Assembly (NCBI GenBank): GCA_027021705.1
Contig: JALUTT010000048.1
Location: 1 to 64,000, forward strand
Direction of reading: 5' to 3'
Source: Anaerolineae bacterium
Lineage (GTDB): Bacteria; Chloroflexota; Anaerolineae; S140-20
Length of the DNA stretch: 64,000 bases
How positions within the stretch are numbered: the first letter of the stretch is position 1; each line of letters begins with the position of its first letter. A program made the translations under genes and the position numbers. Below are positions 17,958 to 64,000 of this stretch, in pieces. The notes beneath the pieces are model-generated. The model was not told the origin of the DNA. It did not search any database and saw only the letters and a program-made list of their open reading frames with translations.

Positions 17958-17971
17958 AAGGGAGACAGAGA

Positions 17972-30425: not shown

Positions 30426-30442
30426 CTTGGCTACCTGTGTTG

Positions 30443-30476: not shown

Positions 30477-30477
30477 T

Positions 30478-31866: not shown

Positions 31867-31868
31867 CT

Positions 31869-32558: not shown

Positions 32559-32581
32559 AGTTCCCCCCTTTCGCAAGGGGA

Positions 32582-45894: not shown

Positions 45895-46229
45895 GCTCCT
45901 TTCTGGTGGGATTGGGGGGGGTGCAGAAGGGACTCCAGGAGCTGCTGGTAGTGGGCGATCTGAGAGCGGTCGAGGGAGTAGTAGCTCTCCCGCCCCACTC
46001 GGCGCACCTGGACGATGCGGGCCTGCCGCAGCCGGCGCAGGTGCCAGGAGACGAGGGGCTGGCTGATGCGCAATCGGTCTGCCAGTTGGGAGACGGTCAA
46101 CTCCTCGGCTGCAGCCAGCGCCCGGATCATCCGCAGCCGCCAGATCTCCTTGAGGGCGTAGAAGTAGCGGGCCAGTTCCCGCAGCTCCGATTCTGTTCCT
46201 GTTCGTCGGACGGTCGAAGGTGGGGACAT
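45891..46229 (-). CDS. ArsR/SmtB family regulator
   Basis: [15 protein letters not shown]...[24 protein letters not shown]. Confidence 0.9.
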
Positions 46230-46575: not shown

Positions 46576-46959
46576 ATGACCGGCGCTACCATCTTGTATA
46601 TCGAAGACAACTTCGAGAACCGCGTTCTGGTCAGACGGGTTCTAGAGGCCTCGGGATACCAGGTCCTGGAGGCGGAGGACGGTCTGACCGGCATAGCCGT
46701 CGCGGAGGAACGCCGCCCGGATCTCATCCTGATGGACATCAACCTGCCCGAGGTAGATGGTTACGAAGTCACCACCCGTCTGAAACAGACGCCAGACCTT
46801 GCCCATATCCCGGTGATCGCGTTGACGGCCAACGTGATGCGAGGCGATCGGGAGAAGAGCCTGGCCGCCGGCTGCGACGGGTACATCCAGAAGCCCATAG
46901 ACGTAGATGCTCTCCCTGACCAAATTGCCGCTTTTCTGAAGCAAAGGAGCGAAGGATGA
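46576..46959 (+). CDS. single-domain response regulator, DivK-like
   Basis: ILYIEDN, LILMDINLP, IALTA, GCDGYIQKP. Confidence 0.93.
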   Translation: MTGATILYIEDNFENRVLVRRVLEASGYQVLEAEDGLTGIAVAEERRPDLILMDINLPEVDGYEVTTRLKQTPDLAHIPVIALTANVMRGDREKSLAAGCDGYIQKPIDVDALPDQIAAFLKQRSEG

Positions 46960-47429
46960 TGCCCCATCCGCAGACGCAGCCACCGTCTTCTTCAGCCTCA
47001 AACCGCCCTCGCCGACGGGTTGGGATTGCTCCCCAGGATGCCCACGTGTTGGTGGTTGAGGACAACCTGAACAACTTCCTGCTCATCACCCGTCTGCTGG
47101 CCTATCTGGGCGTCAAACAGTGTGAGTGGAAGGCTTCGGGGTGGCAGGTTCTCGAATTTGCCGATGCGATGCCTCAGGTGGACCTGATCCTGATGGACAT
47201 CCACATCCCCGATGAAGACGGCTATCAAGCCCTGGCCCGTCTGCGGGCTGAACCCCGTTTCCAGGACACCCTCATTGTGGCCGTCACTGCCGAGGCGACG
47301 GAGGACAACCTGCAGCGGGCCCGGCGGGCCGGCTTCGACGGCTTCATCGGCAAGCCCATTGATCCCGACCGCTTCCCCGATCAGATCCGACGCATCCTGC
47401 GTGGCGAAGAGATTTGGGAGTTGGGCTGA
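46956..47429 (+). CDS. single-domain response regulator
   Basis: VLVVEDN, LILMDIHIP, VAVTA, GFDGFIGKP. Confidence 0.92.
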   Translation: MMPHPQTQPPSSSASNRPRRRVGIAPQDAHVLVVEDNLNNFLLITRLLAYLGVKQCEWKASGWQVLEFADAMPQVDLILMDIHIPDEDGYQALARLRAEPRFQDTLIVAVTAEATEDNLQRARRAGFDGFIGKPIDPDRFPDQIRRILRGEEIWELG

Positions 47430-47448
47430 CCCCGCCGGGAGACAGGGC

Positions 47449-49926
47449 ATGGGCGACTCGGTGACGGCTCATCGGTCTTCCTCCCCTACGGCCAGAGCCG
47501 GGATGCGGGGGGGGCTGGGGCGCACACTCCTCAGCGCTTTTCTTGTTCTGGCTATCGTCCCGCTCAGCGTCGTCAGCTTCCTGGCCTCCGTCCAGGGGCG
47601 GCGCAACTTGGAGCGGGAGTTGAGGGAGCGGCTGATGGCCGTCACCACCCTTCGGGAGCAGCAGATTCAGGACTGGGTGACTGCCCAGCAGCAAGTCCTC
47701 GCCATGCTGTGCAGTGAGCCCACATTGATCGAGGCCGCTGAGGCTCTGGCAAACCCGCCCAGCGATCCAGAAATCCGGACCGCGATGCGCCGCCGTTTCC
47801 TTCAGATCATCAACCAGTACCCTGATCTTGAGCGCTTGCTCCTCCTCTCCCCCGAGGAAGGGCGGGTGCTGGTTGCTTCTGAGGCCTGGAAGGAAGGTCG
47901 GCGCTACAACGATGCGGCCCTGGTGGCAAAGGGGGGCGCTGGGCCCTACACCTACATCTCTCCGGGGACCGACTCCGGTGCCCCTACCCTGGTCCTGGTC
48001 CGGCCCGTCCGGGATGGGGAGCATCGGCGGGTGGGAACCCTGGTAGCCCACCTGCGTCTGGAGGCCCTGGGCAGGATCTTGGCGGAGAGCGTTGGGCTGG
48101 GCAGCACGGGACGCACCTATCTGGTGCTCCCTTCGGGGGAGATCCTGACCCAGGAGGGCTTTCTAACCGGTCAGGATGGTCGGCCGGCCATCCTCAATCC
48201 TGCCGTGGAGGCCGCTTTGCGGGGGGGGAACGGTATCGCCACCTACAAGAACGAAGCCGGTATCCTTGTGATCGGGGTTCACCGCTGGCTGCCCGACCCG
48301 GGGATCGCTCTGATCACGGAGCAGGCCCAGTCGGAGGCCTTCTCCCGCTCTGACGACCTGGCTGCAGCCCTCATCGCCACGGCCCTAGGTGCGGCTCTGC
48401 TGACTGCCATCATCGCTACCGTTGTCACTCGCCAGATCACCCGTCCCATCGTCCGGTTGACGGAGATGGCGGTTCAGATCGCCTCTGGTGACCTGGATCA
48501 GCGGGTCCCGGCCACCCGCCGCGACGAGATCGGCATCCTAGCCCGCGCTTTCAACATCATGACCGCCCGCCTCCAGGTCCTCTACGAGAGCCTGGAGCAG
48601 AAGGTCGCGGAACGAACCCGCCAACTCCAGGAGGCCAACGCCGAAATCCGCTACCAGGCGATCCAGTTGGCCACCAGCGCCGAGGTCGGGCGAATCGTCA
48701 CGTCCATTTTGGACCTGGAGAGCCTGCTTCCCCAAGTCGTTGAACTGATCCGCGATGCCTTCTCCGCCTATCACGTTTCCCTCTTCCTGACGGACGAAGA
48801 TGGGAAGTGGGCCCTCTTGCGGGAGGGGACGGGCGCGCTGGGAGAGCGGTTGAAGCGGGAGGGGTATCGCCTGCCGCTGGATGAGAGCAACTTGGTGGGA
48901 CGGGCCATCAACCGACGTGAGCCCTGCTTGGCCGTTGGGGAGGAGCGCCGAATCTTGGCCGACGTCGAGACCTTTCCTTACACCCAGGCCGAGTTGGTTA
49001 TCCCCCTCATCGTCCGGGATCGCCCCATTGGGGCGCTCAGCGTGCACAGCCTGGAGGAGGATGCCTTCGCTGGCTCCGAGGTGATGGTCCTGCAGACGCT
49101 GGCCGGCCAGGTGGCCATCGCCATCGAGAATGCTCGGGCCTATGCCCTGGAGCGGGAGGCCGCCGAGCAACTGCGGGAGCTAGATCGCTTCAAGACCCGT
49201 TTCCTAGCCAACATGTCCCACGAGTTGCGGGAACCCCTTAACACCATCATCGGCTTCTCCCGGGTGTTGCTCAAGGGGATTGATGGCCCCCTCAACGAGA
49301 TCCAACGGCAGGACATTACCTTTATCCACGACGCGGGCCAGCACCTGCTGGGCCTCATCAACGACATCCTGGACATCGCCGCCATCGAGGCGGGCAAGAT
49401 GGAACTGACGATCCGGGAGGTGAACCTGCGTGCGCTGTTGCAGAGCGTGATGGCGACGGCCAGCGCTCTGGTGCGCGGTCGCCCCATCGAACTCCAGTAC
49501 GACGTCGCCCCCGACCTGCCCGTCGTCCACGCCGATCCCCAACGGCTGCGTCAGGTGATCCTCAAGCTCCTCTCCAACGCAGCCCAGTTCACCGAAGAGG
49601 GAAGCATCACTCTGCGGGCCTGGAGTGAGGACGAGCAGGTCTTCATCAGCGTCAGCGACACGGGCATCGGCATTCCTGAGGCCGATCGGGATCGGATCTT
49701 CGAGCAGTTTCAGCGCCTGGACGGGAAGGGATCCCCCCACCTGGGGGGGGTTGGGCTGGGCTTGGCCCTGAGCAAGGAGTTCGTAGAGATGCACGGCGGC
49801 CAGATCTGGGTGGAGAGCGGCGTGGGCCGGGGTTCTACCTTCACCTTCAGCCTTCCCGTCCGCCCCATCCGATCGGGGGACCAGACCGTGACGGACGGGG
49901 TCCAGAGAGACGGGGTGTCCCTATGA
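47449..49926 (+). CDS. sensor histidine kinase: TM-Cache-TM-HAMP-GAF-HisKA-HATPase
   Basis: DEIGILARAFN; GAF; FLANMSHELREPLN; DTGIGI; GVGLGLALSKEFVEMHGG. Confidence 0.92.
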   Translation: MGDSVTAHRSSSPTARAGMRGGLGRTLLSAFLVLAIVPLSVVSFLASVQGRRNLERELRERLMAVTTLREQQIQDWVTAQQQVLAMLCSEPTLIEAAEALANPPSDPEIRTAMRRRFLQIINQYPDLERLLLLSPEEGRVLVASEAWKEGRRYNDAALVAKGGAGPYTYISPGTDSGAPTLVLVRPVRDGEHRRVGTLVAHLRLEALGRILAESVGLGSTGRTYLVLPSGEILTQEGFLTGQDGRPAILNPAVEAALRGGNGIATYKNEAGILVIGVHRWLPDPGIALITEQAQSEAFSRSDDLAAALIATALGAALLTAIIATVVTRQITRPIVRLTEMAVQIASGDLDQRVPATRRDEIGILARAFNIMTARLQVLYESLEQKVAERTRQLQEANAEIRYQAIQLATSAEVGRIVTSILDLESLLPQVVELIRDAFSAYHVSLFLTDEDGKWALLREGTGALGERLKREGYRLPLDESNLVGRAINRREPCLAVGEERRILADVETFPYTQAELVIPLIVRDRPIGALSVHSLEEDAFAGSEVMVLQTLAGQVAIAIENARAYALEREAAEQLRELDRFKTRFLANMSHELREPLNTIIGFSRVLLKGIDGPLNEIQRQDITFIHDAGQHLLGLINDILDIAAIEAGKMELTIREVNLRALLQSVMATASALVRGRPIELQYDVAPDLPVVHADPQRLRQVILKLLSNAAQFTEEGSITLRAWSEDEQVFISVSDTGIGIPEADRDRIFEQFQRLDGKGSPHLGGVGLGLALSKEFVEMHGGQIWVESGVGRGSTFTFSLPVRPIRSGDQTVTDGVQRDGVSL

Positions 49927-50783
49927 CCACCGTGATCGCGGTAGCCAACCACAAGGGCGGGGTTGCCAAGACCACCACCTGCCTCTCGTTGGGGGGAGGG
50001 TTGGTGGAGCAGGGACAACAGGTGCTGCTGGTGGACTTGGATCCTCAAGCCCACCTGACCGCCTCCTTGGGTATCAAGCCGGAGGGACTGCGCCGTAATG
50101 TGGGCGATGTTCTGTTGGGGCAGCGCTCCCTCGTGGCCGTCAGCCGGGAGACCTCTGTCCGAGGGCTGGATCTGGCCCCGGCTAACCAAGAACTCTTCGT
50201 CCTCGACAAGGTCCTGTACGGACGCCGAGGGTACGAATATCGGCTGCGCGAGGACCTGGACCGGATGTCCGAGCACCTTTACGACGTGATCCTGATAGAC
50301 TGTCCACCGACCTTTGGGACGTTGACCCTCAATGCCCTCACGGCCGCCGATCTGCTCATCGTTCCGGTCCAGTGCGAGTACTACGCCGTCCGCTCGCTCC
50401 ATCAGGTGCTGGAAATGGTCACCCTGGTGCGGCGCAAGACCAACCCCCGGCTTGGCTACCGGCTGCTGGTGACGCTCTTCGACGTGCGCAACAAGGTCCA
50501 CCGGCTGCTCCTGGAGCAACTGCGGGCCCGGTTTTCGGAGACGCTCTTCCAAACCGTCATCCAGGTGGACACGAAGCTGCGGGAGAGCCCGGCCTTTGCC
50601 TTGCCGGTCACCCACTACGCCCCCCGTACTCGGGCTGCGCATCAGTACCGGGCTCTGGCTCAGGAGACGATGGAGGTGGTGGCCCCTCGGACCTCCAGCG
50701 TCCCGACCGTAGCGCAGCCTGCCCAGCCAGAGCCGTCGTCGGTGCGTGAGCCGGTCATCGTGGGAGGCGGGATCGAACCGTAA
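49923..50783 (+). CDS. orphan ParA/Soj family ATPase
   Basis: NHKGGVAKTTT, VDLDPQA, IDCPP, VPVQCE; no parB in the window. Confidence 0.94.
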   Translation: MTTVIAVANHKGGVAKTTTCLSLGGGLVEQGQQVLLVDLDPQAHLTASLGIKPEGLRRNVGDVLLGQRSLVAVSRETSVRGLDLAPANQELFVLDKVLYGRRGYEYRLREDLDRMSEHLYDVILIDCPPTFGTLTLNALTAADLLIVPVQCEYYAVRSLHQVLEMVTLVRRKTNPRLGYRLLVTLFDVRNKVHRLLLEQLRARFSETLFQTVIQVDTKLRESPAFALPVTHYAPRTRAAHQYRALAQETMEVVAPRTSSVPTVAQPAQPEPSSVREPVIVGGGIEP

Positions 50784-50842
50784 GATAGGGGCGCGGGATA
50801 CGAGCGTGCGACGAGAGGCGCGAGCTTAGGAGTGAAGAGGCA

Positions 50843-53605
50843 ATGCCTGACGATCGGTTAAAGCGTTCCTTGGAAGAGCTCTTCTCCGATCTAACCCCAC
50901 CGGCCCCGGAGGGGGAGCCCGAGGCGGCCATCCCCCCATCTCTGCCTCCTGAGGAACCGCCCTCGAGGCCGGAGGTTGCCCTCCCACCGACTCCGTCGCC
51001 GGAGCCTATATCCGTTGCCCCCATCGAGGAGCCTTCCCCACCCCCCGGATGGATGCAGCGCCTCTCCCCCCGCCACTGGCGGCTACCGGCCCGGCTGTTG
51101 AGCCTTATGCTGCTGGTCACCCTGCTGCCCCTGATGATCCTCTCACTGCTCTTCTTCCGTGAAGGGGCGCGCGTCGTGGAGAACAGCGAGTTGCGCAACA
51201 TGGAGGCCATTGCCACGGGCCTGGCTCACCAGATAGACCAGTTGCTCTCTGATATGACCAGTGTGACCTCTATACCTGCTGATGAGGCTCCTGAGTTCCT
51301 CGTCCGGCTGCCTGCTGACCGAACGGACCTGATCGAGACCCTGCGGATCTTCTACAACGTGCCGGAGGATGTCGAAGCGTACCGGGAGGCTCGGGCCCGC
51401 TTGGAAGCTCTGGGCTTGTTAAAGCCTCTGAAGGCCGTGCATAGGGAGTTCCGAGCGATCCAGGAAGCCTATCACACCTTTGAGTCTATCTGCATCCTGG
51501 ATGACGCTGGCTACTGCCTGGCCGCCACCGACCCCAAGCTGGTTGGCCGTTCCTTTGCCACCAAGCGTTTCTACCAGATGGCGATGGAGGGCCAGGCTTT
51601 TACCTCCGACATCGAACCGGAGCTAGCGACCGGGCGCTTTGGCGTCGCGTTTGCCCGGCCCATCGTCGCCGACGATGGACGAATTCTGGGGGTTCTTGTC
51701 GCTCGCCTGGATGCCACCCCCATCTGGCGGATTCTGGAGGAGGTCTCCCTGGAGCCGGGGAGCTACGCGGTCCTGGTCAACCGGGACGGCATTATCATCG
51801 GCCACTCCGAGCGGGGGAACATCTATCAGAGCCTAGGGCCACTGTCCTCTGCCGTGCAGGAGGAGATCCGTCAGAGCCGCCGTTTCGGCGTGGAGGCGAT
51901 GCGGGACCTGGGGTTGCCTCAGGTTGCCGAGGCGCTGGCAGCCGCCAAGGGTCCTGGGCACATCCAATACCAGCGGGGAGATCAAGTGGAGTTCATGGGG
52001 TTCGCTCCCCTCCAGCAGCACACCTGGGTGGTGGGTGTGGTCAAACCCCAAGCCCAGTTGCTGGCCCCGCTGGGCGCTTTGGCCAACCGAGCGCTGGTGA
52101 TCGCCCTGGTCGTCGGGCTGATCGCCGGCGGTCTGGCCCTCCAGTTCAGTCACACGATCACCCGCCCTATCCTCCGGCTAACCGAGGTCGCCACCGCCAT
52201 CGCCAGCGGGGACTTGCGGCGAGAGGTGCCCATCGAGCGGGAAGATGAGATCGGTCTGCTGGGTCGGGCCTTCAACCGGATGGCGGCCCAACTGCGGGAG
52301 TTGATCGGAGGGTTAGAGGCCACGGTGGCCGAACGGACTCGGGCCCTTCAGGAGGCCAACTACCACCTCCAGAAGCGGGCCATCTACCTGGAGGCCAGCG
52401 CCGAGGTAGCCCGGGCCATCACCTCCATCCTCGACGTGGACCAGATGCTCCAGCGGACGGTAGACCTGATCCAGGAGCGGTTTGGCTTCTACCACGTTTC
52501 CATCTTTTTGGTGGACGAGGCGGAGGAGTGGGCTGTGGTACGGGCCTCGACGGGAGAGGTGGGGCGGATTATGATGGAAAAGCCCCACAAGCTGCGGGTG
52601 GGTGGACGCAGTATGGTGGGATGGACGGCGGCCCACCGGCAGCCCCGCATCGCCCTGGACGTGGGGGCCGATGCGGTCCACTTCGACAACCCGCTGCTGC
52701 CTCACACCCGTTCGGAGATGACGCTCCCCTTGATGATGCGGGGGCGGCTCCTGGGCGTGCTGGACGTTCAGTCCACCGAAGAGGCGGCCTTCGACGAGGA
52801 TGACGTGCGGGTGCTGCACAGCCTGGCCGACCAGATCGCCATCGCTCTGGAAAATGCCCGCCGGGTCTCCGACGAGGCAGCCCTGCTGGAGGCGACCAGC
52901 CCTCTCTACCGAGCCAGCCGCCGGTTGACGGAAGCGGTCTCCGCCGACCAGGTGGCAGAAGCCTTCATCGCCTCGGTGGTTGCCACCGAAGCCGATGGAT
53001 GCCTCGTCGGGCTTCTGGAGCCGCCGGATAGCGAAGAGCCGGATGCGGTCCACTTCATCGGCTCCTGGGGACGGGATGGAGTGGCCCCTGTCCCCGCCGG
53101 CTCCCGCTTCCCCCTCTCGGCCAGCCCTATCTCCGTCGCCTTCCTGTTGGAGCGTCAGGTGCTGTCCGAGATCGTCGAGGCTACCTCGCTCTCGCCCGAT
53201 CAGATCGCCTACCTGCAACGGGTGGGGGTGCAGGCGCTGATCAACATCCCCCTTCAGGGCGGCAAGAGGAAGATCGGCTTCGTCACCATCTTCCGAAAGC
53301 GCTCAGGCTCTTTCTCGGAGGCCACCCTGCGCCTGTACGAAGCCCTGAGCGGTCAAGTGGCAGTGGCCCTGGAGCGGGTGTGGCTCCTAGAGATCGCCCG
53401 TCGGCAGGCCGAGGAGGAGGCGGCACTGCGCGCCCTCGGCGATCGCCTGGCCCGGGCGGTGGATATGGAAGTGCTCCTCCAGAGCGCCGCCGAGGGGTTG
53501 GAACAGGCCCTGCGGGCCGGAGGGGTCTACATCGAGCTAGGCCCGGCACCGTTGGATGCGGACCTGCCGGGAAATGGGCGGGGAGGGGACAAGCGCCCAT
53601 CTTGA
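50843..53605 (+). CDS. membrane receptor: Pro-rich N-terminus, Cache, HAMP, two GAF, terminal GAF fragment; no catalytic output
   Basis: Two TMs; EDEIGLLGRAFN; RFGFYHVSIFL...PRIALDVG.DAV.FDNP.LPHTRSEM. Confidence 0.88.
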   Translation: MPDDRLKRSLEELFSDLTPPAPEGEPEAAIPPSLPPEEPPSRPEVALPPTPSPEPISVAPIEEPSPPPGWMQRLSPRHWRLPARLLSLMLLVTLLPLMILSLLFFREGARVVENSELRNMEAIATGLAHQIDQLLSDMTSVTSIPADEAPEFLVRLPADRTDLIETLRIFYNVPEDVEAYREARARLEALGLLKPLKAVHREFRAIQEAYHTFESICILDDAGYCLAATDPKLVGRSFATKRFYQMAMEGQAFTSDIEPELATGRFGVAFARPIVADDGRILGVLVARLDATPIWRILEEVSLEPGSYAVLVNRDGIIIGHSERGNIYQSLGPLSSAVQEEIRQSRRFGVEAMRDLGLPQVAEALAAAKGPGHIQYQRGDQVEFMGFAPLQQHTWVVGVVKPQAQLLAPLGALANRALVIALVVGLIAGGLALQFSHTITRPILRLTEVATAIASGDLRREVPIEREDEIGLLGRAFNRMAAQLRELIGGLEATVAERTRALQEANYHLQKRAIYLEASAEVARAITSILDVDQMLQRTVDLIQERFGFYHVSIFLVDEAEEWAVVRASTGEVGRIMMEKPHKLRVGGRSMVGWTAAHRQPRIALDVGADAVHFDNPLLPHTRSEMTLPLMMRGRLLGVLDVQSTEEAAFDEDDVRVLHSLADQIAIALENARRVSDEAALLEATSPLYRASRRLTEAVSADQVAEAFIASVVATEADGCLVGLLEPPDSEEPDAVHFIGSWGRDGVAPVPAGSRFPLSASPISVAFLLERQVLSEIVEATSLSPDQIAYLQRVGVQALINIPLQGGKRKIGFVTIFRKRSGSFSEATLRLYEALSGQVAVALERVWLLEIARRQAEEEAALRALGDRLARAVDMEVLLQSAAEGLEQALRAGGVYIELGPAPLDADLPGNGRGGDKRPS

Positions 53606-53616
53606 TTCCCTCGATA

Positions 53617-53726
53617 TTCAGCCTACCCTCCCGCAGGTCACCGGTGGAGGGCGCTTTCAGCCCCGATGGGCTATTGGGAAGCACGGTTTCGCGTCGGAAA
53701 CGCGCCTAACCTGCGGGAGGATGAAC
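53617..53726 (-). repeat. dispersed ~110-bp REP/MITE-like element, inverted
   Basis: Reverse complement of 27119-27227 and 33596-33704. Confidence 0.9.
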
Positions 53727-53945
53727 CGTTGCGAATCGTCGGTGTCCGTATCGCGTTAAATCCGGTAGTGGTAGATGAGGGCCCCTTGGGAACGGGAGGT
53801 AGCGGCATGGGGGCGACAGCGGTTATCATCCTCCCGCAGGTCACGCGCTGCCCGGTGGTAGCAATAGCTCATCGGCGGCGGCCTGGGATGCCCTTCAGGC
53901 CGTGGGGAGGACCTGTGGGAGAGTCCCTGAAAAAGGAGCTGTCCC

Positions 53946-54605
53946 ATGATCTCTCGTCCCCTGTCTCGAGAACGATACGTCCTGCTCACCCTCGCCCTGG
54001 TGCTGGCTTACAACTTCTCGGCCTCGCTTGTGGGATGGGGGTGGATCACCGCAACGGTCATCTCGTTCGGCGTGGTCGCCCTCAACGTTGCCTACACCTA
54101 CCGGTATCGGGATGGGCTGATCGGTCGCCTCGTGCTCTTCGGCCTGGCCGCCGGGTTCACGGAGCTGCTGGCCGATTGGTACCTGGTGGTCTTCACGGGT
54201 ACCCTTGTCTACAACCCAGGGGGACCCTTTCTGGTGCGTTCACCGCTCTACATGCCCCTGGCGTGGAGCGTGGTGCTGGTCCAGTTGGGGTTCATTGGCC
54301 ACTGGCTGACCCGGCGGATCGGGCTACCGGCAGCGATGCTGGCCAGCGGCTTGATCGGCGCGGTCAACATTCCGCTTTACGAGGAGTGGGCCCGGAGCGC
54401 CCAATGGTGGACTTACCAGGATACGCCGATGTTCAGCGCGACGCCCTACTACATCATCCTTGGCGAGTTCCTCATTACCCTGGTGCTTCCCTTTATCCTG
54501 AGGGAAGTCGAGCGTCGTTCGCCCCTCCAAGTGGTGTTGCTGGGGATCGGACAGGGCTTGTGGATCTGGTTTTCGTATGCCTTGGCCTTCGGGCTGGTCG
54601 GCTGA
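53946..54605 (+). CDS. multi-pass membrane protein of unknown function
   Basis: About 7 hydrophobic segments; AGGAG RBS; conserved-looking ELLAD, PLYMPLAW, PLYE.WA. Confidence 0.8.
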   Translation: MISRPLSRERYVLLTLALVLAYNFSASLVGWGWITATVISFGVVALNVAYTYRYRDGLIGRLVLFGLAAGFTELLADWYLVVFTGTLVYNPGGPFLVRSPLYMPLAWSVVLVQLGFIGHWLTRRIGLPAAMLASGLIGAVNIPLYEEWARSAQWWTYQDTPMFSATPYYIILGEFLITLVLPFILREVERRSPLQVVLLGIGQGLWIWFSYALAFGLVG

Positions 54606-54651
54606 TGGGGTCGTGTTGATGGGGTCTTGATGGAGCCGTTGGAGACGACGC

Positions 54652-56361: not shown

Positions 56362-56364
56362 GAC

Positions 56365-58596
56365 GTGGAGCGTGAGGAGAGAGAGCCTATGGAGGAGGCT
56401 GTGAATCGGTCGCCTGTGCGCCTATCCTTCGGATTACACGGGACCCTGGCGGTCAGGTTGGTCATCACCTTCATCCTCTTCGCCATCGTGCCCGTTCTTG
56501 TGGTGGGGGTGCCGGCGGCCTTCTGGTCCATCGCCCGCACCGAGCAGGGAGCTCTGGCCTCCCTGGAGGCCAGCGCGGTCCGGCAGGCCGAGGCACTGGA
56601 GGGCGCTATCCAGGATTGGCAGGCAGCGGTGGATGCCCTGGCGGCGGACCCAAAGGTGGCCATCAACCTTCAGGTTATGATGGGAATGGTAGAGGCCGAT
56701 GCACGCAAAGAGGCCCACGACAACCTGGTCTATCGCCTCGAACAGTTCCTGGCCGGCCACCAGAGCTTCCAGGATGCGATCATCGTGGATCTCGAGGGCA
56801 CCGCTCTCCTCTCCACGGCCTCCTATCGGGAAGGGGAAGACCTGAGCGCCGATCCTGCCGTGGCGTGGGCGCTGGGCCTGCCCATTCTCTCCAAAGCCGC
56901 CGTTCACTGGGGACCTGAGCAGCGGACCCCCGTCGTTGCTGTGCCGCTCCGCTTCTCCGCCGGTGATACTCGGGCCATCTTCGTGGCCTGGCTGGACGAC
57001 GATGCCGTGGCCCGTCTGCTCCAGGGGGCTGCCGTCACCTCGTTGTCCAGCCGGACCTATCTCTTCAGTCGCGAGGGGATGGTGGGGGCTGTGCCCGCCC
57101 TCGGCCCATCGGCGGCCGTCTCCTTTGGCTCCCCGGAGATTATGAGGGCTGCCCTGGTCGGCGGGTCAGGCGTTGCCAAGTACCGGAACGACGATGGGGT
57201 GGTGATGCTGGGGGCTTACCGTTGGCTGCCCACCTTGCGGATGGGGCTCCTGACGGAGGTCCCCCGCCAGGTGGTCGTAGAAGGCGTGATGGGCGCCATC
57301 GGCCGGGCCGTTGGTCTGCTCTACGTAGTCGGTTGGATAGGGCTGGTCGTCGCCGTCGCGATGGCCCGCAGCATCTCGATGCCTCTGGTGCGGCTGGCCC
57401 AGGCTGCCGAGCAGGTGGCTCAAGGGGACTTGAGCGTGCGCGTGCCCAGCGGGGGCCGGGATGAACTGGGGCTGCTGGTCCGAGTCTTCAACACGATGAC
57501 GGCCCAGTTGGAGCAGAGCGTCGGTGCCCTTGAGGAAGAGGTGGCGGCTCGCACGGCCAGCCTGCAGCGACGCACCTCCCAACTGGAGGCCACCATTGAG
57601 GTCACCCGTGTAGCCGCCTCGACGTTGGAGATGGACCACCTCCTCCAGCGCGTGGTGGACCTCATCTCCGAGCGCTTTGATTTCTATCACGCTGGCATCT
57701 TCTTGCTGGACGAGGGGGGCGAGTACGCGGTGCTGCGGGCAGCCTCCTCGGAAGGGGGCAAGCGGATGCTGGCCCGGGGCCACAAGTTGAAGGTGGGGGA
57801 GGAGGGCATCGTCGGTTACGTGGCCGAGACCGGCCGGCCCCGCATCGCTTTGGACGTGGGGGAGGATGCGGTTTGGTTTGACAACCCGGACCTGCCTCAC
57901 ACCCGTTCGGAGATGGCGTTGCCGCTGAAGGTGCGCGGGCGGGTCATCGGCGTGCTGGATGTGCAGTCCACCCAGGAGGCTGCCTTCACCCAGGAGGACA
58001 TCACCGTCCTCCAGGTGCTGGCCGACCAGGTGGCCATCGCCATTGACAACGCTCGCCTCTTCCAGGAGGCCCAGGAGAACCTGCAAGAGCTGGAGAGCCT
58101 CTACGGGCGTTACAGCCGGGAGGCCTGGGAGCGGTTGGGGCAGACCTACCCCATCGTCGGTTATCGCTACGACCCGTCGGGCCTTTCGCCCATCTTCGGC
58201 GACGGTGCCGGGGAGGGTGAGGCCGACGAAGAGGCTCCGATCCGCATCCCTCTAGAGGTGCGGGGGCAGGTGATCGGGACACTTGAGGTCTGGCCCGAGC
58301 AGGAGGCCCTGATCTCCGATCAGATTACCCTGCTCAAGGCGGTTGGGCTTCGGATCAGCCAGGCGCTGGAGAGTGCCCGTCTCTTCCAAGAGACGCAGCA
58401 GCGGGCCTGGCGCGAGCAGATGCTCCACCAGTTGACCGCCCGGTTCGCCCGTTCCATTGATCTGGATACGGTGCTGCAGACGGCGGTGCGTGAGTTGGCG
58501 CAGTTGCCTCACGTCGCCGAGGCCTCCATCCACGTGAGCCCCCCGGAAGTCCCTCCCCCGGCGAATGGGGGTGAGGAGGTAGCCCAGGATGAGTGA
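56365..58596 (+). CDS. Cache-HAMP receptor with GAF and split-GAF tail; no catalytic output
   Basis: Two TMs; GRDELGLLVRVFN; conserved GAF; GYRY...IPLEVRGQVIG. Confidence 0.88.
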   Translation: MEREEREPMEEAVNRSPVRLSFGLHGTLAVRLVITFILFAIVPVLVVGVPAAFWSIARTEQGALASLEASAVRQAEALEGAIQDWQAAVDALAADPKVAINLQVMMGMVEADARKEAHDNLVYRLEQFLAGHQSFQDAIIVDLEGTALLSTASYREGEDLSADPAVAWALGLPILSKAAVHWGPEQRTPVVAVPLRFSAGDTRAIFVAWLDDDAVARLLQGAAVTSLSSRTYLFSREGMVGAVPALGPSAAVSFGSPEIMRAALVGGSGVAKYRNDDGVVMLGAYRWLPTLRMGLLTEVPRQVVVEGVMGAIGRAVGLLYVVGWIGLVVAVAMARSISMPLVRLAQAAEQVAQGDLSVRVPSGGRDELGLLVRVFNTMTAQLEQSVGALEEEVAARTASLQRRTSQLEATIEVTRVAASTLEMDHLLQRVVDLISERFDFYHAGIFLLDEGGEYAVLRAASSEGGKRMLARGHKLKVGEEGIVGYVAETGRPRIALDVGEDAVWFDNPDLPHTRSEMALPLKVRGRVIGVLDVQSTQEAAFTQEDITVLQVLADQVAIAIDNARLFQEAQENLQELESLYGRYSREAWERLGQTYPIVGYRYDPSGLSPIFGDGAGEGEADEEAPIRIPLEVRGQVIGTLEVWPEQEALISDQITLLKAVGLRISQALESARLFQETQQRAWREQMLHQLTARFARSIDLDTVLQTAVRELAQLPHVAEASIHVSPPEVPPPANGGEEVAQDE

Positions 58597-60820
58597 TGGG
58601 AAGAAGACCAAGGAGCAGCTGATCGGAGAACTGCAGAAGCTACGCCGGCAGATCGCCGAGCTGCGAGAAGAGCGTCAGCGGACCGAGACGGAGCTCCTCC
58701 AGTGCTATCAGAGCCAGGAGGTGCTGAACGCTCTCTTCCAGCTCTCCTTGGAAGAGGCGACGTTGGAGGAGCAACTGGAGCGCGCTCTGGATGTCATCTT
58801 CACCACGCCCTGGCTCTCTATGTTGCCCAAGGGCAGCATCTTCCTCGTCGAAGATGATCCGGAGGTGCTGGTCCTGAAGGCGCAGCGGGGGCTGCCCCCA
58901 TCGCTGCAGACCAAGTGTGCCCGGCTTCCCTTCGGGCGCTGTCTCTGTGGCCGGGCCGCTGCCAGTGGCGAACTCCAGTTTGCCGACTGCGTGGACCACC
59001 GCCACGAGCACACCTACGAGGGCATCTCACCCCACGGGCACTACAACGTCCCGATCCTGCTAGAGGGTGAGGTGGTGGGTGTCCTCAACCTCTACGTCGA
59101 GGAAGGACACCGGCGGGATGAGCGGGAAGAGACTTTCCTGAAGGCGGTGGCCGGCACCCTCGCCAGCCTGATCAAGCGCAAGCGCGAAGAAGAAGAGCTG
59201 CGGCGAAGCCACCAGAGCCAGGAGGTGCTGAACGCTCTGATGCGCCTCTCTCTGGAGGAGACCTCGCTGGAAGAGCAGTTGGAGCGAGCCCTCGACGTGA
59301 TCCTCTCCACCCCCTGGCTCCCCGCGCTGCCGAAGGGGGGCATCTTCCTTGTGGAGGGGGATTCCGGCGAAATCGTGTTGAAGGCCCAGCGGAACCTAGA
59401 CGATCCGTTGCTGACCCTGTGCGCTCGGGTGCCCTTTGGCCGCTGCCTCTGTGGTCGGGCGGCGGCGAGCGGCAAGATCCAGTTTGCGGACAGGGTGGAC
59501 GACCGCCACGAGATCCACTTTGAGGGGATGGCCCCTCACGGCCACTACAGCGTTCCCATCGTCTTGGACGATAGGGTGGTGGGCGTGATCGTCGCCTACG
59601 TGGAGGAAGGGCACCGGCCGAACAGACAGGAGGAAGCCTTCCTGGAGGCAGTGGCGAACACGCTGGCCGGCCTGATCAAGCGCAAGCAGGCGGAAGAAGC
59701 GCTGCAGCGGGCTCACGATGAGTTGGAGCGACGGGTCGAGGAGCGCACCCGCGATCTGGAGCACAGAGCTGTACAGCTTCAAGTGGCCGCTGAGGTGGCC
59801 CGCGACGCGGCCACAGCCTGGGAACTGGATACCCTGTTGGAGCGGGCCGTCAACCTCGTTCGCGACCGATTCGGCTTTGACCACGTGGGCATCTTCCTGA
59901 CGGACGAGCGGGGCGGGTATGCTCTCTTGAAGGCGGCGACGGAGGAGATGGGCCGCCAGTTGCTGGAACAGGGATACAAGCTGAGGATCGAAGATGGGGG
60001 CCTCGTCGGATCCGCCATCGCTACCGGCGAACCCCAGGTCGCCCTTGATCTCGAGGCGGACGGCGAAGCTGCTGAGGTCCCCTTGCTCCCCCACACCCGG
60101 TCGGAGGTGGTCCTGCCGCTCAAGGTGGGGGATCAGATCATCGGTGCCCTTGATGTGCGCAGCACCGATAGCGCCGTCTTTGGGCAGGATGACGTGGCGG
60201 TCCTGCAGATCGTGGCCGACCAGTTGGCGGTGGCCATCGAGAAGGCGCACCTGCTCCACGAGATGGAGCAGACGGTCCACGAACTGGAAGCGGCCTATGG
60301 GCGTTACACCCAGGAGTCGTGGCGTGCCTTCGTCCAGAGCGCTGGACAGCCCTACGGCTACCGGTACCGAGGGTTGGATGTCGAACGGACCACGGAGCTG
60401 CACCCGGAGGCGCGGGAAGCCCTGCAGCAGGGCCGTTCGGTGGTCACCATCCTCCAGCCAGAGGTGGAAGACGGTCAGCAGAACGCCGTCAGCGCTCTGG
60501 CTGTGCCCGTCAAGCTGCGCGGTCAGGTGATCGGGGTCCTCAACCTGCGCTTCGAGGACAAAACCATCCTGCCGGAGACCATTTCGCTGGTAGAGGAGGC
60601 AGCCGGTCGGTTAGCCCTCGTGCTGGAGAGCGCCCGCCTCTTCAGCGAGGCCCAGGCCCGTGCTGAGCGCGAACGCCTGATCGCCGACATCACGCACCAG
60701 GTGTGGGCGGCGCGGGATTTCCAGCAGATTGTCGAGACGACCTTGCGTTCTTTGAGTCAGGTGCTCGGGGCCTCAGAGGCCGTCGTCCGTCTCCAGACCA
60801 ACGGGCAGCAAGAGGGGTGA
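58589..60820 (+). CDS. soluble receptor with two Cys-rich GAF repeats, conserved GAF and split-GAF tail
   Basis: No TM; two CARxPFGRCLCGRAA repeats; RFGFDHVGIFL GAF; GYRY...LAVPVKLRGQVIG. Confidence 0.88.
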   Translation: MSDGKKTKEQLIGELQKLRRQIAELREERQRTETELLQCYQSQEVLNALFQLSLEEATLEEQLERALDVIFTTPWLSMLPKGSIFLVEDDPEVLVLKAQRGLPPSLQTKCARLPFGRCLCGRAAASGELQFADCVDHRHEHTYEGISPHGHYNVPILLEGEVVGVLNLYVEEGHRRDEREETFLKAVAGTLASLIKRKREEEELRRSHQSQEVLNALMRLSLEETSLEEQLERALDVILSTPWLPALPKGGIFLVEGDSGEIVLKAQRNLDDPLLTLCARVPFGRCLCGRAAASGKIQFADRVDDRHEIHFEGMAPHGHYSVPIVLDDRVVGVIVAYVEEGHRPNRQEEAFLEAVANTLAGLIKRKQAEEALQRAHDELERRVEERTRDLEHRAVQLQVAAEVARDAATAWELDTLLERAVNLVRDRFGFDHVGIFLTDERGGYALLKAATEEMGRQLLEQGYKLRIEDGGLVGSAIATGEPQVALDLEADGEAAEVPLLPHTRSEVVLPLKVGDQIIGALDVRSTDSAVFGQDDVAVLQIVADQLAVAIEKAHLLHEMEQTVHELEAAYGRYTQESWRAFVQSAGQPYGYRYRGLDVERTTELHPEAREALQQGRSVVTILQPEVEDGQQNAVSALAVPVKLRGQVIGVLNLRFEDKTILPETISLVEEAAGRLALVLESARLFSEAQARAERERLIADITHQVWAARDFQQIVETTLRSLSQVLGASEAVVRLQTNGQQEG

Positions 60821-60851
60821 GTGGCAACGGGGCGTGTGAAGGGGTGATGTT

Positions 60852-63806
60852 ATGACGCTGACCGATACCGTCATTCTGTGGACTATTGCAGCGGCCAACC
60901 TCTTGCTGGGGGGGTACATCTTCGTGATGGACCCGCGTCATCGGGCCAACCGCTATCTGAGCGGGATGCTCCTGCTGGGGGCTCTCTACAATTTCGCCCT
61001 GGGGAGCATGGCGCGAGACCTCTTCCCAAAGCCCCAGCTTTGGCCCTTCTACGTGCTGGTGATTACGCTGCCGGTCATCAGCCCGATGATGGTTTTGAGC
61101 ACCATCGCTCTTTTGCAACCGATCTGGTTGGACAGCGGATGGGGGCGATGGATGGCGCGTCTCCTGCACCTCCTGATCCTGCTCCCTCCGCTGCTGGTTC
61201 TGCGCGATGAGCTCGGCCCTGGCCGCCTCTACTTCGCTCCTCCCGCTTCCTACGCCGGGGGCTACGTCGCTCCTCGGGCCTACCTCCAGCAGCCCTTGGG
61301 CTGGATGCTCTTCCTGCTCAGTGAGCGCTGGATCTCGCTGATCGCCCTGGCCACCATCCTCGTCACCCTCCTCTCGAGACGGGCATCTCCTCGTGTCCGA
61401 CGCCTGGCCAGCGGGCTGCTCGTCACCCACTTGGCCGTCACGGCACTCTTCCTGGGAGGACGCAGCCTTCTCCCCATCCCTTCCTTTTGGATTGCCTCGT
61501 TGGGCAGCGCCATCCTGGCCCTGATCTACACCCTGGTGGCCCTCCCTGGCTACCTCTCGAATGCCTTCTTCGAGCGATGGATCGCCAACATCCCGGTGGG
61601 ACGCAAGATGCTGTTGGTTAACAGCGTCCTGTCGGTGGCCGCCATTCTGATGGGGATCGGGGTGATGTGGAGCACAGAGGCCAGTCGCCGGATCCTCCGG
61701 GAGAAGCTGGATGCCGAGCAGACCAAGCTCTACCGGCTTAGCAAAATCGAGTCGTCCCTGCGGGAACTCCAAGGGCTCCACCTGCGCTTCTACGACCAGT
61801 GGCTGACGGCGAACCCCGATGTCCAGAATTTCGATTTCCTGCTGGTCCGCTATCAGGTACCTATGGGGAACGTCCTCGACCTCCTGGATCAGGACCTGGA
61901 GTGGCTCTACGGGGTGGAGGAGGATGAGCCGGCCGACGTGATGGAGATCGCTGCGATAGAGTCCCGTATGCAAGCCTATCGCCAGAGCCTGGCCGGCCTG
62001 ATTCAGAGCATGCGGATGGTGGGGCGGGTTGGACGGGAGGGGACCGCACGGCTACAGGCTATGAGCGACCTGGTGGAGGCCAACGGGTTGAGCACCATCT
62101 TGGAGACGGTGCACAGGGTCTGGCACTACCAGGATGCCTACCTGTTGAATCCGACGGACGATCAGGCCGAGGTGATCCAGGACGAGGTGGACCGGTTGAC
62201 GACCAGCATAGCGGCCCTCTCGGCGGATCAGCTTTCCGATCAGGATCGCGCCCACTTGAACACCTTGCTGATCGAATACCGCCAGCAGTTCCAGCAGTTC
62301 ATTGAGCTCCGTGCGGATGCCTCAGCGCACCTGGCCAGTCTGGAACGCGACAGCGAAGAGGCTCTTATGGCCCTGGAACGGCTGCGTTCCTACGAACAGG
62401 CCGAGTTCAACGAGTTGATGCGGGCCCTCAACGCCCGTCAATTGACCACCCGAGCCATCGTGCTGGGTATCCTGGCCCTGAGCCTCATCGCCACCTACTT
62501 CTTCAGTTGGAACATAGCCGACCAGATCAGCCGGCCCGTCCAGGTCCTGGCCGAGGTTGCTTCCCGGCTGGGGGCCGGGGAGCTGGACGCGCGGACCGGG
62601 ATGCGGCGGCAGGACGAACTGGGGGTGGTGGCCCTCCGGCTCGATCAGATGGCGGATCAGCTCCAGGGTCTCTTGAGCGACTTGGAGATTCAGGTGGCCG
62701 AGCGAACCCGGGCCCTGGAACGGCGGGCTACCCAGATCCAGGCAGTGTCCGAGGTGGGACGGGCTGTGGCTGCAGTGCGCCATCTGGATCAGCTGCTGGA
62801 CCGGGTCGTCCACCTTATCTCCGAGCGGTTCGGCTTCTACCATGCCGGCATCTTTCTGATGGATGAGGAGGGCCGCTGGGCGGAACTCCGCGCTGCCAGC
62901 AGCCCTGGCGGTCAGCAGATGCTGGCCCGGGGCCATCGGCTGGCGACGGGTGACACCAGCATCGTCGGTTGGGTGGCTCAGCACCGGCAGCCCCGCATCG
63001 CTCTAGACGTGGGGGAGGATGCCGTCTGGTTTGACAACCCCGACCTGCCCCAGACGCGCTCGGAGATGGCCCTGCCCCTCATCGCTGGTGGGGAACTGCT
63101 GGGCGTGCTCGACGTGCAGAGCACCGAGGCAGGGGCCTTCAGCGAGGAGGACGTCGAGGTTCTCCAGCTTCTGGCCGATCAGGTCGCCATCAGCATCGTC
63201 AACGCCCGCCTCTTCGTCCGGATGCAGGAGGCGCTCCAAGAGGTGGAAACGCTGAACCGGCAGCTTACCGGGCGGGCGTGGGAGGAGTTCGTCCGCGCCA
63301 CGGGCCTTCCCCCTGGCTACCGCTATCGGGCAACCCGCCTGGAGCCCCTCCGCGACGGTTCGGAGGATCCCGTCCTGGACCAGGCTGCCAAGCGCCAGCG
63401 CGTCGTAGTGGTCCAGCAGGATGGGCAGGCGGAGATGGCACTGCCCCTGGTGCTGCGAGGGCAGGTGATCGGTACCCTCGGCTTCCGGCGTCAGGACGGT
63501 CAGAGTTGGGATGCGAGAACCGTAGAGGTCGCCCAGGCTATCGTCGAGGAGATGGTTCGCGCCCTGGAAAGCGCCCGCCTCTTCGAGGAAGCCCAGGCCC
63601 GCGCCGCCCGCGAGCAGGTGACGGCTCGGGTCGTCGCCCGCATCCGCGAGTCGTTGGACCTGGACACCGTGCTGCGGACGGCCGCTCAGGAGATGCAGAG
63701 GGTGCTCAACCTGGCGGAGGTCGAGGTGCGAGTCGGCGGGGACAGGACGTCAGGACAGGCAGAGGATCAGCCCCCTGCTGAGCGGGGCGAGGGAGGGACC
63801 CGATGA
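60852..63806 (+). CDS. multi-TM (HisKA_7TM-like) + helical-bundle + HAMP receptor with GAF and split-GAF tail
   Basis: About 8 N-terminal TMs; helical extracellular region; RQDELGVVA; conserved GAF; GYRY...LPLVLRGQVIG. Confidence 0.87.
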   Translation: MTLTDTVILWTIAAANLLLGGYIFVMDPRHRANRYLSGMLLLGALYNFALGSMARDLFPKPQLWPFYVLVITLPVISPMMVLSTIALLQPIWLDSGWGRWMARLLHLLILLPPLLVLRDELGPGRLYFAPPASYAGGYVAPRAYLQQPLGWMLFLLSERWISLIALATILVTLLSRRASPRVRRLASGLLVTHLAVTALFLGGRSLLPIPSFWIASLGSAILALIYTLVALPGYLSNAFFERWIANIPVGRKMLLVNSVLSVAAILMGIGVMWSTEASRRILREKLDAEQTKLYRLSKIESSLRELQGLHLRFYDQWLTANPDVQNFDFLLVRYQVPMGNVLDLLDQDLEWLYGVEEDEPADVMEIAAIESRMQAYRQSLAGLIQSMRMVGRVGREGTARLQAMSDLVEANGLSTILETVHRVWHYQDAYLLNPTDDQAEVIQDEVDRLTTSIAALSADQLSDQDRAHLNTLLIEYRQQFQQFIELRADASAHLASLERDSEEALMALERLRSYEQAEFNELMRALNARQLTTRAIVLGILALSLIATYFFSWNIADQISRPVQVLAEVASRLGAGELDARTGMRRQDELGVVALRLDQMADQLQGLLSDLEIQVAERTRALERRATQIQAVSEVGRAVAAVRHLDQLLDRVVHLISERFGFYHAGIFLMDEEGRWAELRAASSPGGQQMLARGHRLATGDTSIVGWVAQHRQPRIALDVGEDAVWFDNPDLPQTRSEMALPLIAGGELLGVLDVQSTEAGAFSEEDVEVLQLLADQVAISIVNARLFVRMQEALQEVETLNRQLTGRAWEEFVRATGLPPGYRYRATRLEPLRDGSEDPVLDQAAKRQRVVVVQQDGQAEMALPLVLRGQVIGTLGFRRQDGQSWDARTVEVAQAIVEEMVRALESARLFEEAQARAAREQVTARVVARIRESLDLDTVLRTAAQEMQRVLNLAEVEVRVGGDRTSGQAEDQPPAERGEGGTR

Positions 63807-64000
63807 GCCAAGCGCAGCGTGGTCGTCGCCATCCCATCGGTGTGATCCGCCGGATGCTCAACCGTTTCCCCACCCTGACGGTTCGTTTCCGGCTACGACT
63901 GCTCTTCATCAGCATGGCCATCGCCCTGGTGGTCGCCGTGGGGAGCGGTTACCGGGCCTTCAATCGGATGCACAGCGACGTGACGGCCATCAACGTCGCC
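63803..64000 (+). CDS. 5' part of next receptor, probably NarX/PilJ-like sensor domain (truncated by window end)
   Basis: ATGA overlap; MSQAQRG...TM helix...DVTAINVA resembles the start of the NarX/NarQ P-box (AINxAG). Confidence 0.7.
   Translation, partial: MSQAQRGRRHPIGVIRRMLNRFPTLTVRFRLRLLFISMAIALVVAVGSGYRAFNRMHSDVTAINVA

Follow-up and report, generated by a model that had tools for sequence, protein, structure and literature searches.

How can a cell make use of a run of receptors that carry no transmitter of their own? This question is raised by a gene cluster, operon-like in layout, from an uncultured Anaerolineae bacterium, in which receptors with differing inputs and one common C-terminal ending follow two receivers, a histidine kinase and a ParA-type ATPase. 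The window, meaning the whole stretch of 64,000 nucleotides (nt) that was analysed, corresponds to C48:1-64000 of a contig of 147,653 bases (C48) in a genome that is 94.9% complete, and the cluster, which starts at position 46576, extends beyond the window to about C48:90027. An earlier note on this DNA, made from the letters alone, had proposed a new kind of sensory array here. Our best explanation overall, to which we give about an even chance, is that this is a conserved, apparently undescribed Anaerolineae cluster whose receptors signal in trans to shared kinases and whose ParA places the assembly. Such a cluster would combine two-component signalling with ParA-positioned receptor arrays, both of them known kinds, in a combination that is apparently undescribed.

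From 46576 to 64000, eleven co-directional genes with a high GC content at third codon positions (GC3) are spaced by -8 to +59 nt, the exception being a 340-nt gap after the first receptor, R1. The junctions at 46956, 49923, 58589 and 63803, already noticed as overlapping, measured -4, -4, -8 and -4 nt, respectively. The genes of the cluster and their parts are as follows.

46576..46959, + strand: RR1, a single-domain receiver of 127 amino acids (aa) (Pfam Response_reg, 7e-28)
46956..47429, + strand: RR2, a single-domain receiver of 157 aa (Pfam Response_reg, 2e-20), with a 4-nt overlap with RR1
47449..49926, + strand: membrane histidine kinase, dCache_1-HAMP-GAF-HisKA-HATPase_c (Pfam), with two hydrophobic segments
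49923..50783, + strand: ParA/MinD-family ATPase (Pfam AAA_31, 6e-49)
50843..53605, + strand: R1, 920 aa, with tag, linker, transmembrane (TM) segment, dCache_1, TM segment, HAMP, GAF1, GAF2 and stub (Pfam, hidden Markov models (HMMs))
50843..50893, + strand: N-terminal tag of R1, MPDDRLKRSLEELFSDL, a predicted ParA-interaction peptide (aligned N-termini)
50894..51085, + strand: cytoplasmic Pro/Glu-rich linker of R1, preceding the first TM segment at about residues 81-109 (sequence, hydrophobicity scan)
52346..52867 and 53351..53542, + strand: GAF1 HMM match and stub of R1 (HMMs built here)
53946..54605, + strand: DUF6989 multi-pass membrane protein of 219 aa between R1 and R2 (Pfam PF22497, 1e-40; GC3 0.81)
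54652..56361, + strand: R2, multi-TM (weak PilS-like 6TM), coiled coil, GAF1 at 55282-55806, headless GAF2 with stub at 55810-56334 (Pfam, HMMs, AlphaFold2)
56365..58596, + strand: R3, dCache-HAMP-GAF1 (GAF1 at 57538-58065), GAF2 with stub at 58066-58539 (Pfam, HMMs)
58589..60820, + strand: R4, soluble, two duplicated Cys-containing GAFs, GAF1 at 59732-60259, GAF2 with stub at 60260-60796 (Pfam, with four GAF stretches; HMMs)
60852..63806, + strand: R5, multi-TM, helical region, TM segment, HAMP, GAF1 at 62691-63215, GAF2 with stub at 63219-63734 (Pfam, HMMs, hydrophobicity scan)
C48:63803-65698, + strand: R6, PilJ-HAMP-GAF-GAF2-stub, 631 aa, the window holding its start (Pfam, HMMs)
C48:65695-67422: R7, PAS-GAF (Pfam)
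C48:67447-69243: R8, MASE11-GAF (Pfam)
C48:69385-70659: periplasmic binding protein
C48:70663-72933: R9, dCache-HAMP-GAF (Pfam)
C48:72934-73890: 318-aa protein with no Pfam or NCBIfam match
C48:73969-75540: terpene-cyclase-like gene, 524 aa (SQHop_cyclase_C, 2e-16)
C48:75562-80373: 1603-aa membrane protein with eight GAFs and the stub (Pfam, HMMs)
C48:80443-88242: 2599-aa soluble hybrid kinase with twelve GAFs, HisKA, HATPase_c and two receivers (Pfam)
C48:88255-90027: threonine-synthase-family pyridoxal phosphate (PLP) enzyme fused to a C-terminal receiver, ThrC-like-REC (Pfam, NCBIfam)

The five complete receptors in the window, beginning at 50843, 54652, 56365, 58589 and 60852, exist as open reading frames (ORFs) on the + strand with a GC3 of 0.80-0.83, and their Pfam architectures agree with the differing inputs that had been read from them. 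Over the contig, the inputs comprise dCache, PilJ, PAS, MASE11-like and other membrane domains as well as the Cys-containing GAF. Ten receptors on C48 end in the stub, namely R1-R9 and the 1603-aa membrane multi-GAF protein. Pfam found no HisKA, HATPase_c, GGDEF, EAL, PP2C or MCPsignal domain in R1-R5, in keeping with the earlier statement that HisKA, GGDEF, PP2C and methyl-accepting chemotaxis protein (MCP) domains were missing from them, and found no output domain in any of the ten, DHp/HATPase_c being absent from these and present in the kinases at 47449 and C48:80443. The gene at 63803 had been described as a sixth, NarX-like one; a gene does start there, and its product R6 is not a NarX-type kinase but an output-less PilJ-HAMP-GAF-GAF receptor.

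The constant ending is composed of a coiled coil or signalling helix, GAF1, a headless GAF2 and a stub of about 60 residues. The C-terminal modules of R1-R5 aligned over about 370 columns, with 33-40% identity to R1 and a mean column identity of 49%, and the motifs RFGFYH and PRIALDVG.DAV.FDNP.LP.TRSE, on which the common ending had been based, were present in them. GAF1 was the most conserved part of the module, and the GAF of the kinase at 47449, said earlier to be related, matched the GAF1 HMM with an E of 4e-47, the identity being 28%. The Pfam families matched in the receptors are GAF, GAF_2 and GAF_3. When residues 195-569 of R2 were modelled with AlphaFold2 from 58 aligned sequences, the predicted local distance difference test score (pLDDT) was 91, and the model ran from a long helix through a complete GAF, a 50-residue helix, a three-strand small domain and a 45-residue helix to a short helix. 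The last 18 or so residues of the monomer models were of low confidence and had no strand (block mean pLDDT 46; 68 and 47 for GAF2 alone). Foldseek comparison of the 375-residue model with the PDB returned GAF, phosphodiesterase (PDE) tandem-GAF and phytochrome GAF-PHY matches only, the best being 8w26 (E 5e-10) and others 3lfv, 1ykd and 1mc0, with PDE5, PDE2 and CyaB2 among the structures matched. Folded alone, the second domain of R2 reached a pLDDT of 88.9, and a VIA search with it gave 2xss_B (Z 8.8, root-mean-square deviation 2.7, 79 aligned), 2vks_A (Z 8.7) and also 1mc0_A; because the VIA rows extend over model residues 41-143, this fold comparison says little about the long helices and the stub. 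Of solved GAFs, only the C-terminal two thirds aligned with GAF2 (for example, residues 67-167 of 3mmh_B with model residues 42-143), and, judging by the models, the second domain is a GAF lacking its N-terminal third, hence "headless".

An HMM of the last 64 or so residues matched, in multi-GAF proteins of this genome, the places where one GAF passes into the next. The tail is therefore the terminal helix of GAF2 continued by the opening helix and strand of another GAF, which then breaks off. With this, the idea of the tail as a separate signalling tip had to be given up. Ten proteins in the whole genome stop 7-23 residues past the stub, every one of them in this cluster, and elsewhere the stub motif occurs only as an internal GAF-GAF junction; besides these 10 genes, six relatives have at least 34 with the same truncation point. 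A catalytic tail, which the earlier note had itself named as a possibility to check, was rejected, as Pfam, NCBIfam, Foldseek (whole module) and VIA (second domain) gave GAF-type matches only.

The GAF1 stretches of R2 and R3 (55398-55697 and 57654-57953) share 94% DNA identity over 300 nt, against 64-71% to other paralogues, which suggests recent gene conversion between the two neighbours. R4 contains an internal tandem duplication at 58691-59705 (504-nt spacing, 72-74% identity) that yields two GAFs with a CLCGRAA motif; they are reminiscent of free methionine-sulfoxide-reductase-type GAFs and may form a redox input.

Searching a protein database with the ending of R2 returned 1291 proteins of 312-996 aa (E <= 1e-3), and 107 of the best 120 of these were without a HisKA or HATPase_c Pfam entry. 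Those matches that are named bear the name 'GAF domain-containing protein', alone or together with 'HAMP domain-containing protein', 'PAS domain S-box-containing protein', 'signal transduction histidine kinase' and 'hypothetical protein'; the named NCBI records come mostly from metagenome-assembled genomes (MAGs) of Anaerolineae, Chloroflexota or Thermoflexia. A profile of the module matched 86,378 proteins (E <= 1e-3), 37,183 (1e-10) and 10,861 (1e-30) in a library of 1.84 billion proteins, and these totals are not a receptor count, because the top 150 are mostly giant multi-GAF proteins matched 5-21 times through the generic GAF-GAF junction.

Concerning the kinases, the single one assumed earlier became at least two, the membrane kinase, whose ORF is open from 47212 with a likely start at 47449, and the 2599-aa hybrid kinase, which together with ThrC-like-REC is the most constant neighbour of the receptors. 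The hybrid kinase has the order HisKA-HATPase-REC-REC and carries three GAF1-type domains (E 3e-69, 3e-67 and 1e-64) and a full GAF2 plus stub unit (3e-33). Orthologues of the membrane kinase were found with E values of 2e-210 (G018), 6e-229 (G001) and 5e-203 (G011), those of RR2 with 1e-66 to 4e-75 in G018, G001, G012 and G031, and those of RR1 at the cluster head in G018, G001, G012, G011, G031, L045, L048 and L049. Assigning RR1 and RR2 to CheY was unsupported, these being generic receivers, of which RR1 is 32% identical to a che-operon CheY. ThrC-like-REC, which follows the hybrid kinase in G001, G005, G011 and G033 as well, is a candidate enzymatic output; its NCBIfam scores lie below the cut-offs (NF006050, 262 versus 303 bits; TIGR00260, 163.6 versus 167.1). 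The single genomic Hpt match (L131, G000:C34:22257-22538, - strand) is a 108-aa ORF beside an 846-aa multi-GAF protein, and this Hpt may serve the relay of the hybrid kinase.

To what extent is the cluster conserved? ParA orthologues with 47-71% identity occurred in 7 of 40 relatives, the next tier reaching at most 44%. Stub-ended receptors adjoin ParA in all seven, and, where contigs allow, RR1, RR2 and the membrane kinase lie upstream and the hybrid kinase and ThrC-like-REC downstream, a synteny that bears out the co-occurrence with a kinase, two receivers and ParA proposed earlier. In G001, the order is RR1, RR2, membrane kinase, ParA, eight stub-ended proteins, hybrid kinase and ThrC-like-REC, and the receptor run also holds one GAF protein without a stub match and a binding protein. 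G018 and G005 have a gene order like that of G001, and G005 retains the DUF6989 gene (4e-69) at the same position between receptors.

The profile of GAF2 plus stub (E <= 1e-20) matched 13 of the 40 relatives and none of the other 27. Cross-tabulated with ParA, seven relatives had both ParA and receptors, none had ParA without receptors, six had receptors without ParA and 27 had neither. Those positive beyond the seven were G002, G003 and G033 (fragmented assemblies with 9-14 matches each), G011 (4), G031 (2) and G025 (one partial internal match). In the ParA-less G011, G031 and G033, the receptors lie directly upstream of a giant or GAF hybrid kinase, with ThrC-like-REC next in G011 and G033. 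Since the ParA-less clusters keep these parts, the constant core consists of the receptors and the hybrid kinase, possibly with the enzyme-receiver fusion, and the larger receptor sets in this sample of 40 relatives are those with ParA. Among public genome contigs, 8 of 80 ParA loci encoded a ParA of at least 61% identity, and six of these eight hold 1-4 stub-ended receptors in the flank, the other two lying on contigs of 7.1 and 3.4 kb. None of the 69 public loci with a ParA of 44% identity or less holds stub-ended receptors.

The earlier note had called ParA an orphan. This stands, no ParB being found among the cluster ORFs scanned with Pfam. ParA is optional, the smaller clusters of G011 and G031 being without it. 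The protein has a deviant Walker A motif, KGGVAKTT, whose K11, G12, G13, V14, K16 and T17 are invariant in 17 sequences. In each of the seven relatives that have it, the orthologue occupies the same place, and in six its stop overlaps the start of the next gene. A separate ParA with 41% identity is encoded on contig C132 of the same genome. Best NCBIfam matches were partition families, far below the cut-offs (RepA, 112 versus 348 bits; ParA_partition, 99.5 versus 180). In a quick maximum-likelihood tree of 87 ParAs, built without Vibrio ParC and Rhodobacter PpfA, the 15 cluster ParAs formed one clade (SH-aLRT support 98) that was sister (95) to those of L053, L054 and L055, the whole group being split from the 69 other ParAs (100).

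The three sister ParAs are intermediate, with 46-51% identity. Two of them, at L053 and L054, belong to che operons with the order ParA, a protein made of peptide, Pro linker and CheW, CheY, CheA, CheC, CheD, CheY, CheB, CheR and CheX (L053:2112-10728 and L054:10001-16323, with HDOD and HD-GYP-type receiver proteins upstream); at L055, no tagged neighbour was found beside ParA. When two ParP-like CheW domains were used in phmmer searches, a CheW neighbour was detected at L053 and L054 only among the 80 ParA loci, at a low sensitivity that left CheA P5 domains unlisted. As L052 and L053, like L050 and L054, share the same two MAGs, both systems are able to coexist.

In all 14 readable cluster loci, the gene after ParA begins with the tag, followed by a Pro-rich stretch of 40-80 residues. 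L10, L13 and F14 are invariant and S15 is at least 90% conserved in 15 aligned N-termini, including the two ParP-like CheW proteins. A tagged dCache receptor was found in our genome, G018, G001, G021, L045, L048 and L049; in G005, the tagged protein is another membrane protein, and G027 also has the tag. Within our genome the tag is unique to R1, the other receptors being without it, and it was absent from 322 ORFs of ParA-less cluster fragments. A hydrophobicity scan places the tag of R1 in the cytoplasm. In ParP, an N-terminal domain that interacts with ParC is joined through a long proline-rich linker to a CheW-like AIF domain, according to the available part of PMC5706961, and the tagged CheW proteins of L053 and L054 have this published architecture. 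Activators of ParA/MinD ATPases have in common short, positively charged N-terminal peptides, as stated in the available part of PMC7993993. From the tree and the aligned N-termini, we conclude that the cluster ParA is truly related by evolution to the ParAs of chemotaxis operons, as the N-terminus of R1 is to ParP-like adaptors, and this sister relation to the che-operon ParA and ParP is the most informative new point.

The tag is predicted to be a ParA-interaction peptide. Complex prediction of two ParA copies with ATP, Mg and residues 1-45 of R1 scored 0.48 (runs 0.48, 0.50 and 0.48), against 0.02 for the best of three controls. The runs shared at least 75% of contacts with a partner pLDDT of at least 58, which was graded as weak support. 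In calibration, 116 of 157 solved complexes attained the mark, as did 2 of 215 mismatched pairs; at scores of 0.60 or less, those that passed were 18 of the 157 and both mismatches.

Taken as a mechanism, the explanation would run as follows. The receptors, because they have no transmitter of their own, would use the constant GAF module to signal in trans to the membrane kinase, to the giant multi-GAF kinase, whose N-terminal region consists of repeated GAF1-GAF2 units of the same type, or to both. The kinases would phosphorylate RR1, RR2 and the enzyme-linked receiver. ParA would be a ParC-like positioning or partitioning factor that docks on the ParP-like basic peptide of R1, held on its Pro-rich tether, and this docking would place or segregate the receptor-kinase assembly.

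Several points weigh against this explanation. Receptor-to-kinase signalling is proposed from gene order alone, and so are receptor-kinase contact, array formation and the choice of the receiver that would be phosphorylated. The best NCBIfam matches of RR1 and RR2 are hybrid-kinase receiver domains, far below the cut-offs, and not CheY equivalogs, and the genome-wide Hpt search found no Hpt gene in the cluster although the hybrid kinase carries two receivers. ParA is dispensable, considering that G011 and G031 (93% and 98% complete) have receptors and kinases without a ParA orthologue. The tag sits on soluble multi-GAF proteins in G012, G038, L046, L050 and L052, and R1 itself is not special, because the tagged protein differs across genomes. 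A complex score of 0.48 falls in a band where most predictions are wrong unless the pair was a likely guess at the outset, and the ParA-tag job, with its own alignments and ligands, was unlike the calibration. The tree is the quick version of a search whose careful form is unfinished, and the co-occurrence counts overstate independence because the relatives are kin.

The receptors could also be autonomous, with GAF1 binding a common small molecule or second messenger, or with non-kinase targets; their clustering with kinases would then result from tandem duplication and co-regulation and not from a common signalling complex. Binding of small molecules is a classic function of GAF domains, the fold matches include the cNMP-binding GAFs of PDE, CyaB2 and Lcd1 and that of free Met-sulfoxide reductase, GAF1 is the best conserved part of the module, and the 94% nucleotide identity between R2 and R3 over 300 nt fits concerted evolution of a common function; the ThrC-like-REC enzyme that closes the cluster could make or remove the ligand. 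However, ligand binding by GAF1 alone gives a membrane receptor no output, the cluster ORFs scanned with Pfam showed no cyclase or phosphodiesterase domain, the hybrid kinase is made of the same GAF1-GAF2 units, and the receptors lie immediately upstream of it in all adequate contigs (our own, G001, G005, G011, G031, G033 and G018), so that we consider autonomy unlikely. Less probable still, at perhaps one step further down, is that the stub, being the head of a GAF, inserts into a headless GAF2, that of an adjacent receptor or one in the multi-GAF kinase, and thereby joins dimers into chains or lattices as the physical basis of an array. The alignment of GAF2 to only the C-terminal two thirds of solved GAFs, the resemblance of the stub to the start of the next GAF at multi-GAF junctions, the ending of all ten receptors 7-23 residues past this element and the low-confidence, strandless last 18 or so residues of the monomer models, which could be an element awaiting a partner, would suit such docking; yet a complete GAF follows the headless GAF2 in multi-GAF proteins, and the domain evidently folds without a swapped head.

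That ParA is an ordinary DNA-partition ATPase present by chance, with an irrelevant R1 peptide, we regard as very unlikely. Its best NCBIfam matches are indeed plasmid or chromosome partition families, if far below the cut-offs, but the cluster ORFs scanned contain no ParB, another ParA of 41% identity exists on C132, the position is kept in 7 of 7 relatives with an overlap with the next gene in six, the clade is sister to che-operon ParAs and apart from 69 others, and the tag was found with ParA at all 14 readable loci and in none of the ParA-less clusters. We attach the least weight, close to none, to the receptors being artefacts or decay products, left where frameshifts or assembly errors broke up the genes of giant multi-GAF kinases. 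In favour of this, the repeat units of the giant kinase are homologous to the receptor endings, which stop within a GAF; nevertheless, each receptor has its own start, input, membrane domains and a GC3 of 0.80-0.83, the short gaps or 4-8-nt overlaps are typical of coupled genes, the truncation point recurs in 10 genes of this genome and at least 34 of six relatives, and 1291 database proteins match the R2 ending, 107 of the best 120 being without HisKA or HATPase_c.

Some neighbouring features lie outside these questions. An ArsR-family helix-turn-helix regulator, a possible local regulator, is encoded divergently 346 nt upstream of RR1 (45891-46229, - strand). The terpene-cyclase-like gene has a GC3 of 0.58 against about 0.8 for the cluster and, because of this lower value, may be an insertion. 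The DUF6989 gene had been missed in the earlier note; its protein had no match in an NCBIfam scan, and a 317-aa ORF at 53666-54619, which overlaps the gene in another frame, is Arg/Pro/Gly-rich and looks spurious. Farther upstream, a run at 6879-22459 (+ strand) encodes large secreted-type proteins with Calx-beta and right-handed beta-helix domains, its ORFs 9941-11257 and 11404-13131 having no Pfam match, and 29256-32576 (- strand) holds a separate OmpR-type pair (HAMP-HisKA-HATPase kinase and REC-Trans_reg_C regulator) adjoining an ArsA-HSP20 ATPase. DNA nearly identical to 46576-56575 occurs in two runs of a single study (P2) labelled hydrothermal vent metagenome, X2 with a share of 0.80 and X3 with 0.76. 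A further run, X1 (0.98), may be the source, and no RNA run was listed for this stretch.

If the receptors do report to shared kinases, many inputs would feed one phosphorelay without MCPs, CheW or CheA. The large family named only 'GAF domain-containing protein', with 1291 matches to one ending, would then gain a function, and ParA/MinD ATPases would gain a new cargo class. The ParA/MinD cargos named in the available part of a 2024 review are chromosomes, microcompartments, the divisome, flagella, chemoreceptor arrays and secretion or conjugation machines, and a receptor-kinase assembly of this type is not among them (PMC11407121). A literature search outside subscription journals found no publication that describes clusters of kinase-less GAF receptors or links a ParA to GAF sensors. 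Because ParP-like CheW proteins and these receptors have the tag in common, it can be tested directly whether an array-positioning module was re-used in evolution. A bolder joint reading is that the cluster represents a third prokaryotic multi-receptor machine beside classical two-component systems and chemosensory arrays, in which GAF-tipped, transmitter-less receptors and a giant multi-GAF scaffold kinase would form a supramolecular complex, possibly by docking of the stub into the headless GAF, with placement and inheritance by a ParC/ParP-derived motor and with a phosphorylation-gated PLP enzyme as output in place of a motor or a promoter; we rate this as possible and rather doubtful.

Chemotaxis genes as such seem to be lacking here. 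The claim that the window holds no che genes was extended by the whole genome, which had no MCPsignal (PF00015) match, the control being positive in 8 of 14 genomes, and no CheW-domain (PF01584) match, neither CheW nor CheA being found; CheR, CheB, CheC and CheD were absent from the Pfam-scanned ORFs of C48:1-95 kb, the scope of the CheR and CheB search being that region and not the genome. The comparison with arrays nevertheless holds in part, in the variable inputs, the constant non-catalytic ending and the link of ParA to che operons, and fails for the single kinase. As in the ParC-ParP arrays of Vibrio and Pseudomonas and the PpfA-TlpT arrays of Rhodobacter, variable inputs (dCache, PilJ, PAS, HAMP) are joined to a constant cytoplasmic ending and accompanied by shared kinases, single-domain receivers and a dedicated ParA without ParB; the partner with an N-terminal basic peptide on a proline-rich tether is like that of ParC-ParP in the available part of PMC5706961. 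In contrast to chemosensory arrays, the ending is a tandem GAF and not a four-helix hairpin, the kinases are of HisKA type and the conserved last gene is an enzyme-receiver fusion. Unlike in ParP, the tag is carried by a receptor or multi-GAF protein and not by a CheW-like adaptor, R1 being dCache-HAMP-GAF-GAF without a CheW domain.

R1, R3, R5, R6 and R9 have the order input-HAMP-coiled coil-GAF in common with the kinase at 47449, and in this they resemble NarX/NarQ-type kinases, which run from sensor, TM segment and HAMP through signalling helix and GAF to DHp and CA. The receptors differ from these in that a headless GAF and stub take the place of DHp and CA, and they are incapable of autophosphorylation. 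A pair of GAF-type domains connected by long helices is also found in the modules of PDE2/5/6, cyanobacterial CyaB adenylyl cyclases and phytochrome GAF-PHY, whereas these regulate a catalytic domain of the same chain and the receptor modules have nothing after them. A sensor can also control the kinase activity of another protein by direct contact, as RetS does on GacS in Pseudomonas. Sensors of the RetS type, however, are single proteins with degenerate transmitters, unlike the 5-10 GAF-ended paralogues that are found here together with ParA and a giant multi-GAF kinase.

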